Origin: a virus
Lineage: Duplodnaviria > Heunggongvirae > Uroviricota > Caudoviricetes
Length of the DNA: 64,000 nt
Direction: 5' to 3' (one strand)
Virus record (IMG/VR): IMGVR_UViG_2718218133_000001
Position numbers and translations under genes: made by a program. Positions within the stretch are counted from its first letter, which is position 1; each line of letters begins with the position of its first letter. Below the pieces are notes generated by a model. That model was given only the letters and a program-made list of their open reading frames with translations. It was not told where the DNA came from and made no database searches. Shown piece after piece: positions 37,886 to 42,260 of this stretch.

Positions 37886-37907
37886 TAACAAGTGACTAGT
37901 GTTAAAT
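37886..37907 (+). promoter_or_regulatory. candidate late promoter element TAACAAGTGACTAGTGTTAAAT upstream of prt
   Basis: AAGTGA(C/T)T core also found upstream of lyz (42901-42922) and mat (~28185-28205). Confidence 0.3.
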
Positions 37908-37941
37908 TCCGTTCAAACACGATGCGAATTATTCTAATTAA

Positions 37942-39672
<1,731 letters not shown>

Positions 39673-40947
39673 ACGGCAAACATTCCCAATTCACAGAGTC
39701 CGACCTAAACCACATGAAGCGGCTTAGGAATTACAGACTCTCCAAGGGCTAACACTGCCAGCCCGGCAGCTTTTATATTACGGGCCGCGTTAATATCACG
39801 ATCATGCTCTGCGCCACATTCCGGGCAGTGCCATTTACGAATATTAAGAGGCATTTTTTGCATGGTGAAGCCGCAACTGCTGCAACGTTTGGAAGAAGGG
39901 AAATACTGGTCGATAGCGACAATGCTACGTCCACCCCATTCTCCTTTGTACTGGAGTTGGCGTACAAGTTCGCTCCAGCCTGCGTCAGCTATTGCTTTAG
40001 ATAGCTTCGGGTTACGGATCATGTTTTTCACTTTAAGGGATTCGACGCAAACAACTTGGTTTTCGTTAATCAGTTTGCGGGACAACTTATGCAGGTTATC
40101 CATCCGACAATCGACTATTCTCGCGTGGAGGCGGGCAACCTTTAAACGTGCTTTGGCGCGGTTCTTTGAGCCTTTTTGTTTCTTGCTCAATCTGCGCTGT
40201 AACACTGCTAATCGCTTCGCGTATTTAGCGTTGTGTCGAGGATTGCCAGTTTTAAAACCGGTATCGGTGACGAACAAATCTTTTAAACCAATATCAATGC
40301 CGACCGTGGAAACGGTGATCGGCAGTGATACAGGCTCAAACTCGCAGAGACAGGATACAAAATATCGTCCGGCAGCATCCCTGGTGATAGTGACAGTGGA
40401 TGGAGCAGACGGCAACGGACGGCTCCAGCGAACATCTAACGGCTCTTTGCTCTTTGCCATGTACAGCTTGCCGTCACGGTATTTAAATGCGCTGGCAGTT
40501 AGTTCTGCGGCCTGTTTATGCCGCTTGCTCTTAAAAACTGGGTATGCAGCACGCCCGGCGAAAAAGTTAGCAAAAGCCGTTTGTTGGTGGCGCAGAGACT
40601 GCTGGAGGGGGACGCAGGAAACGTCATTCAGCCAAGCGAATTCTGGTTCTTTTTTCAGTGCCGTTAATTTGGCGCTGGCTTGTGCATAGCCGACCCTCTC
40701 ATGGCGTGCGTAGTACGCATCGGTGCGCCAGCGAAGGAGGCTGTTATAGACAAAACGCACACACCCAAAAGTCCGGGCTAATAGCTCGGTTTGTTCGGGA
40801 GTTGGATAGAATCGATATTTATAGGCACGCTTCATGTTCTATATAATACATTGAAACTAATGAGTATATAAATGAATACACGGACGAAAATGTTATCAAA
40901 GCCAATATACCAACAGACATTAGGTAAGGTAGCTGGAGGGCAATATA
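39673..40947 (-). mobile_element. IS200/IS605-family element carrying solo tnpB (ends approximate)
   Basis: Intergenic insertion between prt and pro; no tnpA ORF found; element ends not determined. Confidence 0.6.
39705..40835 (-). CDS. tnpB: TnpB (OrfB) RuvC-like RNA-guided nuclease
   Basis: 376 aa; RuvC motifs GIDIGLKDL.. and C-terminal zinc finger CSSCG..CPECG. Confidence 0.85.
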   Translation of the reverse strand: MKRAYKYRFYPTPEQTELLARTFGCVRFVYNSLLRWRTDAYYARHERVGYAQASAKLTALKKEPEFAWLNDVSCVPLQQSLRHQQTAFANFFAGRAAYPVFKSKRHKQAAELTASAFKYRDGKLYMAKSKEPLDVRWSRPLPSAPSTVTITRDAAGRYFVSCLCEFEPVSLPITVSTVGIDIGLKDLFVTDTGFKTGNPRHNAKYAKRLAVLQRRLSKKQKGSKNRAKARLKVARLHARIVDCRMDNLHKLSRKLINENQVVCVESLKVKNMIRNPKLSKAIADAGWSELVRQLQYKGEWGGRSIVAIDQYFPSSKRCSSCGFTMQKMPLNIRKWHCPECGAEHDRDINAARNIKAAGLAVLALGESVIPKPLHVV

Positions 40948-41967
40948 ATGACTGATGTTTTGAAAACGGTCACTGACCGCTTTTGTCTCTATAGCAATGC
41001 TCGAAAAGGTCGCCAGAACGGGCGACAGTATGTATTAAGCGCGGTTAAGACCATGCTTGAAAGCAAGGAAACTCAGGAAGGTTTACGCCTTGGAGAGCTT
41101 TTCGGCTATTACGGTCACGGTCGCCGACAGCTGACCGGCAAACTGGAAGTACCAGAAACCAGCGTAATCATGGTGGAAGGTCGCCCGGTCGTAATCGACA
41201 ATGTTCCAGCGTGCCGCACAGTGGCTATATCCGTTGACGACAACGGCATCGTTACCCATACACAGGAAATTCTTAACACAGAGCCGGGTAAAATTGTCGC
41301 CGCGATGATCGAAAGCCGAGCTGGTGGCTGGAGCTGGGCCACTGGCGGGCGTGAGTCCGGGAAAATCGCTGTAACCACCAGCTTCCATGGTGTGGATTAT
41401 GTGACAACGCCGAACTATATCAGTCTGGATCATCCTGCCAGCGCCGGAATGTTTGAAAGCGCGGATTCTAAATCTTTACTGGCAGAGTCCCTGGCGGCGC
41501 ATGGGTACTCCGACGAGTCAGTGCAGGCCGTTATATCCCATTACGGCAAAATGGCTGAACTGGAAATGATGGTGGAGGCGACAGAGCGTACGGCAGAACT
41601 GGAAACTGCACTACTCGAAAGCCAGGGCCGCCACCTCGAAGCAATGGCTAAGATCGCAGATGCTGAAGCGCGAATCGCTTTGCTGGAGGAAACAGCGGGT
41701 ATCCGCGACGATGTGCTGGCAGCAATGCAAGACGAACTGGATAACCTCCCGATCTTCGTCTCCGCCGCCCAAAAAGACGCATTCCGCCTCAAAGAACCTG
41801 GTGATGCAAAAATCGTTGCCACACTTTTCGAATCTCTGATCAAAGTTGGCGCACGCAACTTGCCTGTCACCAAGAAAATTAAGGAGGTTCCGCAAGCGGC
41901 TAACGTCCAGGCACCGCGTGAGACAAGCATCATCACGTTTAATAATTCAATCAATCCGTTTAAATAA
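40948..41967 (+). CDS. pro: head processing protease / scaffold-like protein
   Basis: 339 aa; position after prt; coiled-coil C-terminal half. Confidence 0.5.
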   Translation: MTDVLKTVTDRFCLYSNARKGRQNGRQYVLSAVKTMLESKETQEGLRLGELFGYYGHGRRQLTGKLEVPETSVIMVEGRPVVIDNVPACRTVAISVDDNGIVTHTQEILNTEPGKIVAAMIESRAGGWSWATGGRESGKIAVTTSFHGVDYVTTPNYISLDHPASAGMFESADSKSLLAESLAAHGYSDESVQAVISHYGKMAELEMMVEATERTAELETALLESQGRHLEAMAKIADAEARIALLEETAGIRDDVLAAMQDELDNLPIFVSAAQKDAFRLKEPGDAKIVATLFESLIKVGARNLPVTKKIKEVPQAANVQAPRETSIITFNNSINPFK

Positions 41968-41976
41968 CCACCAAAA

Positions 41977-42000
41977 ATAACCCCGGCAGCTGCCGGGGTT
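41977..42000. terminator. hairpin ccccggcagctgccgggg after pro
   Basis: Perfect palindrome followed by TTCTCGTT. Confidence 0.5.
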
Positions 42001-42011
42001 CTCGTTAACTA

Positions 42012-42260
42012 TTATCGCCTTCGTGCCATATATTTGCGCACCGCGCGGCGTGGACAATCTGAAGCGGTTTCTTTCTGCTGCATCAATCTCGCAGCCATGC
42101 TCAAAAATGTCAGGCACAGCCGAAGCCCGGCATACAATAGCGGTTCCAGTGGCCACGTCTCATTGAGCACATATACCGCCATGAAAATCGAGTCAAAAAC
42201 TATCGCCGCCAGCGATAACTTCATTGTCGAAAGTCGGCGGAGCTGCCGGAGTTTATTCAT
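42012..42260 (-). CDS. small membrane protein downstream of lyz
   Basis: 82 aa with one long hydrophobic segment. Confidence 0.3.
   Translation of the reverse strand: MNKLRQLRRLSTMKLSLAAIVFDSIFMAVYVLNETWPLEPLLYAGLRLCLTFLSMAARLMQQKETASDCPRRAVRKYMARRR

Follow-up and report, generated by a model that had tools for sequence, protein, structure and literature searches.

A tnpB-only IS200/IS605 element at the prt/pro junction of a P1-like phage-plasmid, with a predicted guide against element-free P1

ISDra2 of Deinococcus radiodurans is an autonomous insertion sequence (IS) that carries both tnpA and tnpB and has the target TTGAT. In TnpB systems of the ISDra2 type, the guide lies directly 3' of the right end, and a plasmid-borne TnpB that was reprogrammed cleaves element-free plasmids and behaves as a gene drive (PMC11870625). 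TnpB also cuts the empty donor site, which leads to retention of the transposon (bioRxiv 10.1101/2023.03.14.532601). The TnpBs of IS607 elements are guided by RAGATH-18 RNAs (PMC11061315), and TldRs are known as regulators derived from TnpB (bioRxiv 10.1101/2023.11.30.569447). GipA of Salmonella phage Gifsy-1 was described as a Peyer's-patch virulence factor before the function of TnpB was known (PMC3627910; GenBank AF246666), and the only literature that we found linking gipA to TnpB was one 2013 paper, older than the discovery of the guide RNA. Here we analyzed a tnpB element in a 64,000-nt stretch of Caudoviricetes DNA (IMG/VR record IMGVR_UViG_2718218133_000001, hereafter the window), which lies on the minus strand between the portal gene prt and the head processing gene pro of a P1-like phage-plasmid. 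Public annotation already names the gene RNA-guided endonuclease TnpB, and the finding is thus of a known kind. What is added beyond that annotation is the exact ends of the element, its guide RNA with a predicted target, the evidence that it is stranded but maintained, and a pattern of insertion at start codons.

The best explanation, which we consider quite likely when taken as a whole, is that the element is a non-autonomous, tnpB-only member of the IS200/IS605 family that inserted once at the 5' edge of the ATGA of pro, in a P1-like phage-plasmid ancestral to what is now a minority lineage, that it has kept an intact nuclease and a guide directed against element-free P1, and that it is probably stranded. 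Like ISDra2 TnpB (PDB 8exa, 8h1j and 8bf8), the window protein has the same domain order, a D-E-D triad and a zinc finger; both elements have a scaffold that takes in part of the tnpB 3' end together with the right end, and in both a single motif marks the insertion site and the target. Unlike ISDra2, the window element has no tnpA, uses TCAT as its target, has lost the left-end hairpin, and has an RNA that scores below all Rfam thresholds. The closest characterized relative is the GipA element of Gifsy-1 (84% protein and 80% DNA identity), likewise a solo tnpB lying antisense within a phage morphogenesis operon, between tail genes Z and U, with TCAT at the start codon of the downstream gpU and GGAGGC in its left end; however, Gifsy-1 keeps a perfect 20-bp left-end hairpin. 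The ISEc42-type copy between bioA and ybhB in Escherichia coli B2 strains (CFT073, Nissle 1917 and 536) resembles the window element in tnpB and the right end, including the terminal ..GTCAA (81% DNA identity), and in the position of TCAT at a start codon, that of ybhB, whereas it is chromosomal and has a different left end in which the hairpin is present. Under ISfinder practice, sequences with 81% identity are normally separate insertion sequences. The name ISEc42, which a single GenBank annotation (ON470615.2) gives to the P1 copy, probably belongs to the 81%-identical B2 chromosomal copy, which is probably also the one that carries this name in papers; in the literature searched, ISEc42 received incidental mentions only.

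An earlier note on this DNA, made from the sequence alone, had placed a solo tnpB of the IS200/IS605 family between prt and pro, genes that are adjacent in P1. Alignment with P1 (NC_005856) bears this out, as the two genes overlap by 8 bp there (ATGACTGA), an overlap that is lost in the window. The comparison with insertion-free P1-like genomes that the note had proposed fixed the ends of the inserted DNA at 39653 and 40947 on the minus strand (1295 bp), with a 3-nt ambiguity due to a shared ATA. P1 reads ...GGGAAACGATA/ATGACTG... at the junction, and the window reads ...GGGAAACGATA(TTGACAATTG ... GGAGGGCAATATA)ATGACTG..., where the parentheses enclose the insertion. On the tnpB strand the element reads TCAT/TATATTGCC...ATTGTCAA/TATCGTTTCC, and its ends appear in the boundary display as TCAT/TATATTGCCCTCC ... 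GGACAATTGTCAA/TATCGTTTCCCTC. The lower boundary is 20 nt further out than the position given before (39673). Because the boundary is at 39653, the prt stop codon (39670-39672), which the note had placed directly next to the expected guide RNA, is actually within the element.

A megablast search with 38900-41900 against phage genomes found both flanks matched at 98% and the middle 1.3 kb absent in P1, P7, RCS47, SJ46 and others. The uninterrupted prt/pro junction in these phages indicates that the element was inserted and does not belong to the conserved genes of the phage. One phage record, vB_EcoM-673R5, matched the whole stretch including the element. The 81%-identical relative in CFT073 lies between bioA and ybhB (TTTCAT/TAGAATGCCTCC...GCCGTCAA/GAGCCCTCC), and this site is empty in NCTC11151. 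The occupied/empty pair identifies TCAT as the target in the flank, which would be the target-adjacent motif (TAM) of TnpB, and ..GTCAA as the right-end terminus. TCAT is present as a single copy in the empty sites (P1 and E. coli bioA-ybhB), abuts the left end in the occupied sites, and is constant in 30 or more relatives whose flanks vary. No TnpB with a TCAT TAM was found in the literature searched. The element ends show no terminal inverted repeats and no target duplication, as expected for IS200/IS605, and insertion 3' of a fixed tetra- or pentanucleotide without duplication or inverted repeats is what is seen in tnpB-only (IS1341-type) members of this family.

The earlier note had also reported that no tnpA accompanies the gene. 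A tblastn search of the 64-kb window with the TnpA of IS200C agrees with this, as it revealed no Y1 tnpA (best E value 3), and the parts of the element outside tnpB, a left end of 112 nt and a 3' region of 52 nt, are too short to hold a tnpA. The TCAT target, the ..GTCAA right end, the subterminal hairpin and the structured 3' RNA described below support a tnpB-only (IS1341-type) IS200/IS605 anatomy.

The protein is a member of the TnpB family and is predicted from its sequence to work as a TnpB/guide-RNA module of the ISDra2 type. The RuvC-like motifs and the CxxC..CxxC motif that had been read from the 376-aa minus-strand frame were confirmed by Pfam, by NCBIfam and by alignment with ISDra2. 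The Pfam domains HTH_OrfB_IS605 (PF12323), OrfB_IS605 (PF01385) and Cas12f1-like_TNB (PF07282) were all found above their cut-offs. The NCBIfam model guided_TnpB ("RNA-guided endonuclease TnpB family", NF040570) scored 358 bits against a cut-off of 100, and the stricter IS200_TnpB model (NF038281) scored 394 bits, slightly below its cut-off of 425. The protein aligned over its full length with the ISDra2 TnpB structures 8exa and 8h1j (E value 7e-77), with D181, E265 and D347 matching D191, E278 and D361 of ISDra2, so that the RuvC D-E-D triad is intact; the zinc-finger motifs C318SSC and C337PEC are also present. The domain architecture is that of TnpB, with an N-terminal helix-turn-helix (HTH)/WED region, RuvC and a zinc-ribbon TNB domain. 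The TnpB-derived regulators of the TldR study are reportedly nuclease-inactivated, and the loss of RuvC residues expected of such a nuclease-dead protein is not seen here, where all three residues are kept. A consensus scan found a promoter-like site facing tnpB (TTTATA-18-TATTAT) whose -10 hexamer stops 7 nt ahead of the ATG. Together with the lack of a Shine-Dalgarno sequence ahead of tnpB, in the window and likewise in the relatives, this position suggests a leaderless tnpB mRNA.

To characterize the 3' end, 79 related loci (numbered with the prefix L) were gathered with one genome per species, and for 25 non-redundant relatives an alignment was made of the 140 nt that end at the right-end terminus. 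RNAalifold predicted five helices with 31 pairs from this alignment, and 19 of the pairs show compensatory double changes. Paired cells amounted to 94.6%, compared with 81.4% in column shuffles (0 of 500 reached the observed value) and 40-50% when the partners were slid by 1-3 columns. The window scaffold folds with -52.4 kcal/mol (z -5.2) and overlaps the last 22 codons of tnpB as well as the right end; since it lies partly inside the tnpB frame, the covariation there is not simply codon drift. With 31 pairs and clean controls, the locus has the structured 3'-end guide RNA that is expected beside a tnpB. The earlier expectation that the guide RNA comes from the 3' end of the element is thus supported by the five covarying helices, although the scaffold spans 39653-39770 and not 39660-39720.

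A search of Rfam with the window and ten relatives gave only sub-threshold matches, all at the same location, to RAGATH-18 (RF03064; 21.8 bits in the window and 32.4 bits in the relative L036, gathering score 44.9), sot0042 (at most 20.6 bits, threshold 88) and HgcC (at most 19.6 bits, threshold 50). All three families are RNAs known beside tnpB genes. The weak RAGATH-18 match shares with the guide RNAs of IS607 TnpBs the place and the order of parts (helix, GGAG, helix ... UGAA, helix); unlike the RAGATH-18 systems, it stays below the gathering score, and the window protein belongs to the IS200/IS605 branch of TnpB and not to IS607. The subterminal hairpin of the right end aligns with CCTCGCCC TTTA GGGCGGGG of the relatives, with the pairing preserved through compensatory and G-U changes, and folds as DNA with -5.6 kcal/mol. 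At its closing pair, position 39669 is T on the tnpB strand of the window (...TTTATGGCGG) and G, the family consensus, in L090, L094 and L096 (...TTTAGGGCGG).

By analogy with ISDra2-type systems, the guide would consist of the first 16-20 nt beyond the right end, which are antisense to the final codons of the native prt gene. Preceded by TCAT, this guide sequence is identical to the P1 prt/pro junction in its uninterrupted form. A 37-nt probe for this junction matched without mismatch in 312 PLSDB plasmids (272 from Escherichia, 30 from Salmonella, 8 from Klebsiella and 2 from Shigella), and the presence of the predicted target in so many plasmids is compatible with a gene-drive or anti-competitor role. 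When the window was scanned with up to three mismatches allowed, the sole match to the guide was the occupied site, which is preceded by TCAA and not by TCAT. The occupied site would be spared because the right end supplies TCAA in place of TCAT. A TCAA-type right end in place of the TAM is the usual way in which such elements avoid self-cleavage.

We propose the following mechanism. Transcription past the right end would add a guide of 16-20 nt copied from the end of prt. TnpB loaded with this guide would cut P1-like genomes that carry TCAT and the guide sequence, i.e., an uninterrupted prt/pro junction, and the occupied site, whose right end finishes in TCAA, would escape. In cells with both kinds of P1, the element-free copies would then be destroyed or converted, resulting in a gene drive or in the exclusion of competitors. 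We infer by analogy that the donor-site cutting and gene-drive behavior known from other systems may apply to P1. As in the plasmid drive, the TnpB element is carried by a plasmid, and through its guide it would keep a record of where it inserted and attack copies that lack it; however, that drive was experimental and used other elements on multicopy plasmids (PMC11870625), whereas the present case concerns a low-copy phage-plasmid and is predicted from sequence. This would be a natural example of a TnpB whose guide is directed at a phage, and at a well-studied one, with the exact predicted target in more than 300 P1-like plasmids. Competition between element-bearing and element-free P1 could reveal whether TnpB serves as a gene drive or an exclusion weapon among phage-plasmids.

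The left end differs from those of the relatives, which have a GC-rich hairpin nested within an outer GCCTCC/GGAGGC stem, and resembles them over the first ~30 nt only. Its DNA has a minimum free energy of -1.2 kcal/mol, no better than shuffled sequences, compared with -8.4 to -12.1 kcal/mol in three relatives. Subterminal hairpins, which TnpA binds, are expected at both ends of an IS200/IS605 element; the right one is present in the window and the left one is absent, and the element was therefore filed as IS-derived and probably immobile. The left end is 100% identical across the six P1-borne copies that were fetched in full (L002 and L088-L092). All copies with this left end are at prt/pro; six of them and three IMG/VR contigs were checked directly, and the other records that match at 98.8% or more likewise span both prt/pro junctions. 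No other site was found in a blastn-short search of the left end against all collected loci or in E. coli genomes, PLSDB or phages, and scans for the exact left-end pattern gave three matches in IMG/VR, all at prt/pro, and none in JGI metagenomes. No tnpA was found within 1.5 kb of any relative with at least 56% protein identity, which indicates that the clade is non-autonomous; three distant relatives (37-41%) have one. The absence of the left-end hairpin and the single site suggest that the element is probably stranded at prt/pro with a decayed hairpin. The decay of the left end, set against the retention of the nuclease, guide RNA and right end, shows what survives the loss of transposition.

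Among ~489 matches to P1-like plasmids in complete E. coli genomes, ~36 (about 7%) carry the element, and it lies at prt/pro in dozens of plasmids of this type from E. coli, Escherichia albertii and Escherichia fergusonii. The tnpB gene was intact in the four other P1-like plasmid copies examined. Compared with the window, three of these differ by 5, 3 and 5 nucleotides and 1, 0 and 1 amino acids, respectively (mostly synonymous changes), and L090 differs by 13 nucleotides and 7 amino acids. The counts of synonymous and non-synonymous codons were 124 and 54 against CFT073 and 130 and 61 against GipA. When L089-L092 from E. coli, E. albertii and E. fergusonii were compared with window positions 37951-41967, the element was 3-5 times less diverged than prt/pro in three of the four comparisons (Fisher p 0.0006-0.009), which is compatible with a younger, horizontally spreading element. 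No gradient of co-conversion beside the element was seen in the positions of single-nucleotide polymorphisms (SNPs) in these comparisons; the nearest flank SNPs in most of them are 100 nt (39552) and 98 nt (41046) from the element, and homing tracts thus receive no direct evidence.

These data bear on the possibility that the element is an inert relic, which landed once and is passively carried by a P1 sub-lineage, its TnpB and RNA not expressed or not active. The decayed left end, the single site, the low share of P1-like plasmids (~7%) and a count of promoter-like sites that is not above chance would all agree with such a relic. However, the open reading frame (ORF) is intact in every copy examined, with mostly synonymous changes in three of four and the catalytic residues kept, and the pairing of the right-end/guide-RNA hairpin is maintained by compensatory changes despite the decay of the left-end hairpin. 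As the element is also less diverged than its flanks, we regard an inert relic as unlikely.

Alternatively, the element might still be a mobile IS that depends on a Y1 TnpA supplied in trans from another locus, e.g., from a chromosomal IS200 or from the IS200C beside pro in a sibling plasmid. In favor of this, neither the right end nor the TCAT target is damaged, close relatives are present in multiple copies in Serratia and Klebsiella genomes, and the sibling plasmid NZ_CP033882.1 has an IS200C tnpA ~115 bp beyond pro. Nevertheless, mobility of this kind is very unlikely, because the left-end hairpin for TnpA binding is missing and no other site was found in E. coli genomes, PLSDB, phages, IMG/VR or JGI metagenomes. 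Moreover, the TnpA of IS200 recognizes its own ends. In this sibling plasmid (L088), which is 99.9% identical to the window across the element, the IS200C tnpA is at 7959-8417, between the lysis genes and pro; the corresponding window region (41968-42252) has no IS200C insertion.

Table 1. Coordinates of the features of the tnpB element and its surroundings in the window.
Feature	Position	Strand	Basis or remark
Whole element (left end, tnpB, guide-RNA scaffold, right end)	39653..40947	-	P1 alignment; CFT073 against the empty site
tnpB coding sequence, 376 aa, intact RuvC triad and zinc finger	39705..40835	-	ORF list; profile and structure matches
Predicted guide-RNA (omegaRNA) scaffold, ~118 nt, five helices	39653..39770	-	Covariation; folding
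Right-end subterminal hairpin GTTTGCCG TTTA TGGCGGAC, then terminus AATTGTCAA	39662..39681	-	Alignment with relatives
Predicted guide template 5'-TATCGTTTCCCTCTTTAAAG	39633..39652	-	Position directly 3' of the right end; analogy with ISDra2-type systems
Target/TAM tetranucleotide TCAT, reverse complement of the ATGA of pro	40948..40951	-	Occupied and empty sites; relatives
Left end, 112 nt, 32% GC, without the GC-rich hairpin of the relatives	40836..40947	-	Folding; relatives
Promoter-like site facing tnpB	40843..40872	-	Consensus scan only, no evidence of function
Promoter-like site facing pro, TTTATA-18-TATAAT, 10/12 matches	40818..40847	+	Consensus scan only
GGAGGG within the left end, 7 nt before the ATG of pro	40935..40940	+	Sequence; putative Shine-Dalgarno replacement
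prt (portal gene), 573 aa; last 20 nt (39653-39672) from the element right end	37951..39672	+	
pro (head processing gene), 339 aa, split from prt by the insertion	40948..41967	+	
P1 late promoter LPpro, upstream of prt, intact	37890..37908	+	Annotation of the P1 record; exact match in the window

The cost of the insertion to the phage looks small. The Prt C-terminus reads ..GNDIDNCPP in place of ..KEGNDND in P1, a tail four residues longer, and pro is uncoupled from prt, any translational coupling being lost together with the overlap, but pro is given GGAGGG by the left end. The RNA structure around GGAGGG is weak in the window (-14.3 kcal/mol, z 0.14), and the equivalent motif is sequestered in a hairpin in CFT073 (-28 kcal/mol) and Gifsy-1 (-55 kcal/mol). 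As LPpro lies upstream of prt, transcripts from it must cross 1295 bp antisense to tnpB before they reach pro. The two divergent promoter-like sites overlap and straddle the tnpB start codon (40818-40872). Between 39400 and 41200 we counted nine terminator-like hairpins, compared with 1.9 expected, seven of which are weak ones on the plus strand, antisense to tnpB (e.g., 39755-39769, 40160-40172, 40507-40524 and 40773-40789). The hairpin at 39755-39769 is the complement of helix 1 of the guide RNA.

The element might also have been domesticated for another task, as a regulator of prt/pro or as a host-interaction factor like GipA, and not act as a self-preserving nuclease. A left end that carries a Shine-Dalgarno sequence together with a promoter-like site facing pro would suit a regulator, and GipA, with 84% protein identity, was reported to be a virulence factor (AF246666; PMC3627910). 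We consider domestication highly improbable, since the nuclease residues are intact, unlike in TldR, most P1-like plasmids lack the element, and its predicted guide points to its own empty site. That tnpB is a native, conserved P1 gene and not an insertion is refuted by the empty sites: although dozens of P1-like plasmids from E. coli, E. albertii and E. fergusonii do have the ORF at this position, an occurrence that the earlier note would have taken to mean a conserved phage gene if it came without IS-like ends, it has IS-type ends and is the minority state, the 37-nt junction is uninterrupted in P1, P7 and more than 300 P1-like plasmids, and relatives with 80-87% identity lie in unrelated contexts (bioA-ybhB, trbC, traX and Gifsy-1 Z/U).

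Several points weigh against our preferred explanation of a stranded element whose nuclease is aimed at element-free P1. Both the length of the guide and the precise TAM needed for cleavage are deduced from the target site of the transposon. The P1 prophage is low-copy, so that a drive within the cell would be relevant mainly in co-infection or lytic replication. One of the four compared plasmids, L090, shows equal divergence in the element and the flanks, and the low divergence of the element in the others would fit equally well if the flanks recombine with the large pool of element-free P1. The promoter-like sites are consensus matches only, and their count (2) compares with 1.6 expected from shuffled sequences. 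The seven plus-strand terminator-like hairpins inside the element could cause polarity on pro. Finally, virion formation by element-bearing P1 is putative; the one phage record with the element seems to come from a genome survey of clinical isolates, described in a preprint.

The position of the element at the start codon of pro recurs among its relatives, which have two classes of left ends, one flanked by TCAT (CAGAATGCCTCC...) and one by TTAT or TTAC (CAATTTGCGCG...). In 27 of the 34 independent insertions of the TCAT class (L009-L074, L003, L004, L098 and L099), the ATG that pairs with CAT is precisely the first codon of an opposite-strand ORF with 100 codons or more, compared with 25% of random TCAT sites in the same flanks (binomial p 5e-11). 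All annotated cases (pro, ybhB, trbC, Gifsy-1 gpU and traX) are at the annotated start codon. The position of the P1 insertion at the start of pro is thus the usual one for this clade and not accidental. As a rough estimate, a 4-nt target together with the loss of intragenic insertions would by itself lead to only a quarter to a third of the sites being at start codons. Rejoined flanks give normal translation initiation regions, 20 of 30 of which contain a native Shine-Dalgarno sequence. A GGAGG-type motif from the left end starts at -11 to -14 (mostly -12) from the start in 23 of 30 TCAT-class relatives and is carried by most enterobacterial members. We found no description of insertion at start codons in the literature searched (IS605, IS1341 or TnpB with start codon or ribosome binding site).

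The Shine-Dalgarno sequence of the left end was considered as the cause of the start-codon placement. However, this idea is weakened by the Halomonas/Zobellella subgroup, which has the placement without a left-end Shine-Dalgarno sequence, and further by CFT073 and Gifsy-1, where the sequence is buried in the left-end hairpin. An exception to the placement is one Serratia plasmid copy with a rearranged left end (L097, NZ_MT039201.1, ~2655-2770). This copy, which lies away from a start codon and has an intact right end, carries a GC-rich, terminator-like hairpin (GCCGCCCCGCGTCGCGGGCGGC) in place of its left end and is thus a second case in which the left end has been lost.

The second class (L017, L018, L022, L024, L025, L035, L051, L061, L064, L072 and L100) has the right end and the guide-RNA scaffold in common with the first and a different left end, and no native Shine-Dalgarno-like sequence was found in its right-end flank. 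The left end and the target motif therefore appear to be swappable while the nuclease and the RNA are kept. A wider reading, to which we give somewhat less than even credence, is that the TCAT clade is specialized for the 5' edge of opposite-strand ATGA starts, that the enterobacterial left end serves as a replacement Shine-Dalgarno sequence, and that the P1 copy acts as a drive. Under this wider reading, the insertion may be translationally silent and thus allow life inside essential operons (P1 prt/pro, Gifsy-1 Z/U, trbC and traX), and the P1 copy may have given up the transposition hairpin, which freed the Shine-Dalgarno sequence, and kept its nuclease and guide against element-free P1. If the start-codon placement is a true adaptation, a transposon can occupy operons without breaking them.

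Solo tnpB elements in phage structural operons seem to be recurrent. In Klebsiella phage PQ805437, a relative adjoins a tail-completion gene. The Klebsiella pneumoniae phage-plasmid NZ_CP137410.1 (L006) has two different tnpB genes (1319-2500 and 4005-5117) that flank the gene of the small terminase subunit. In a Serratia copy (L021), a thiamine pyrophosphate (TPP) riboswitch at 2854-2956 (69 bits, above threshold) follows ~180 nt after the right end; it has no relation to the element.

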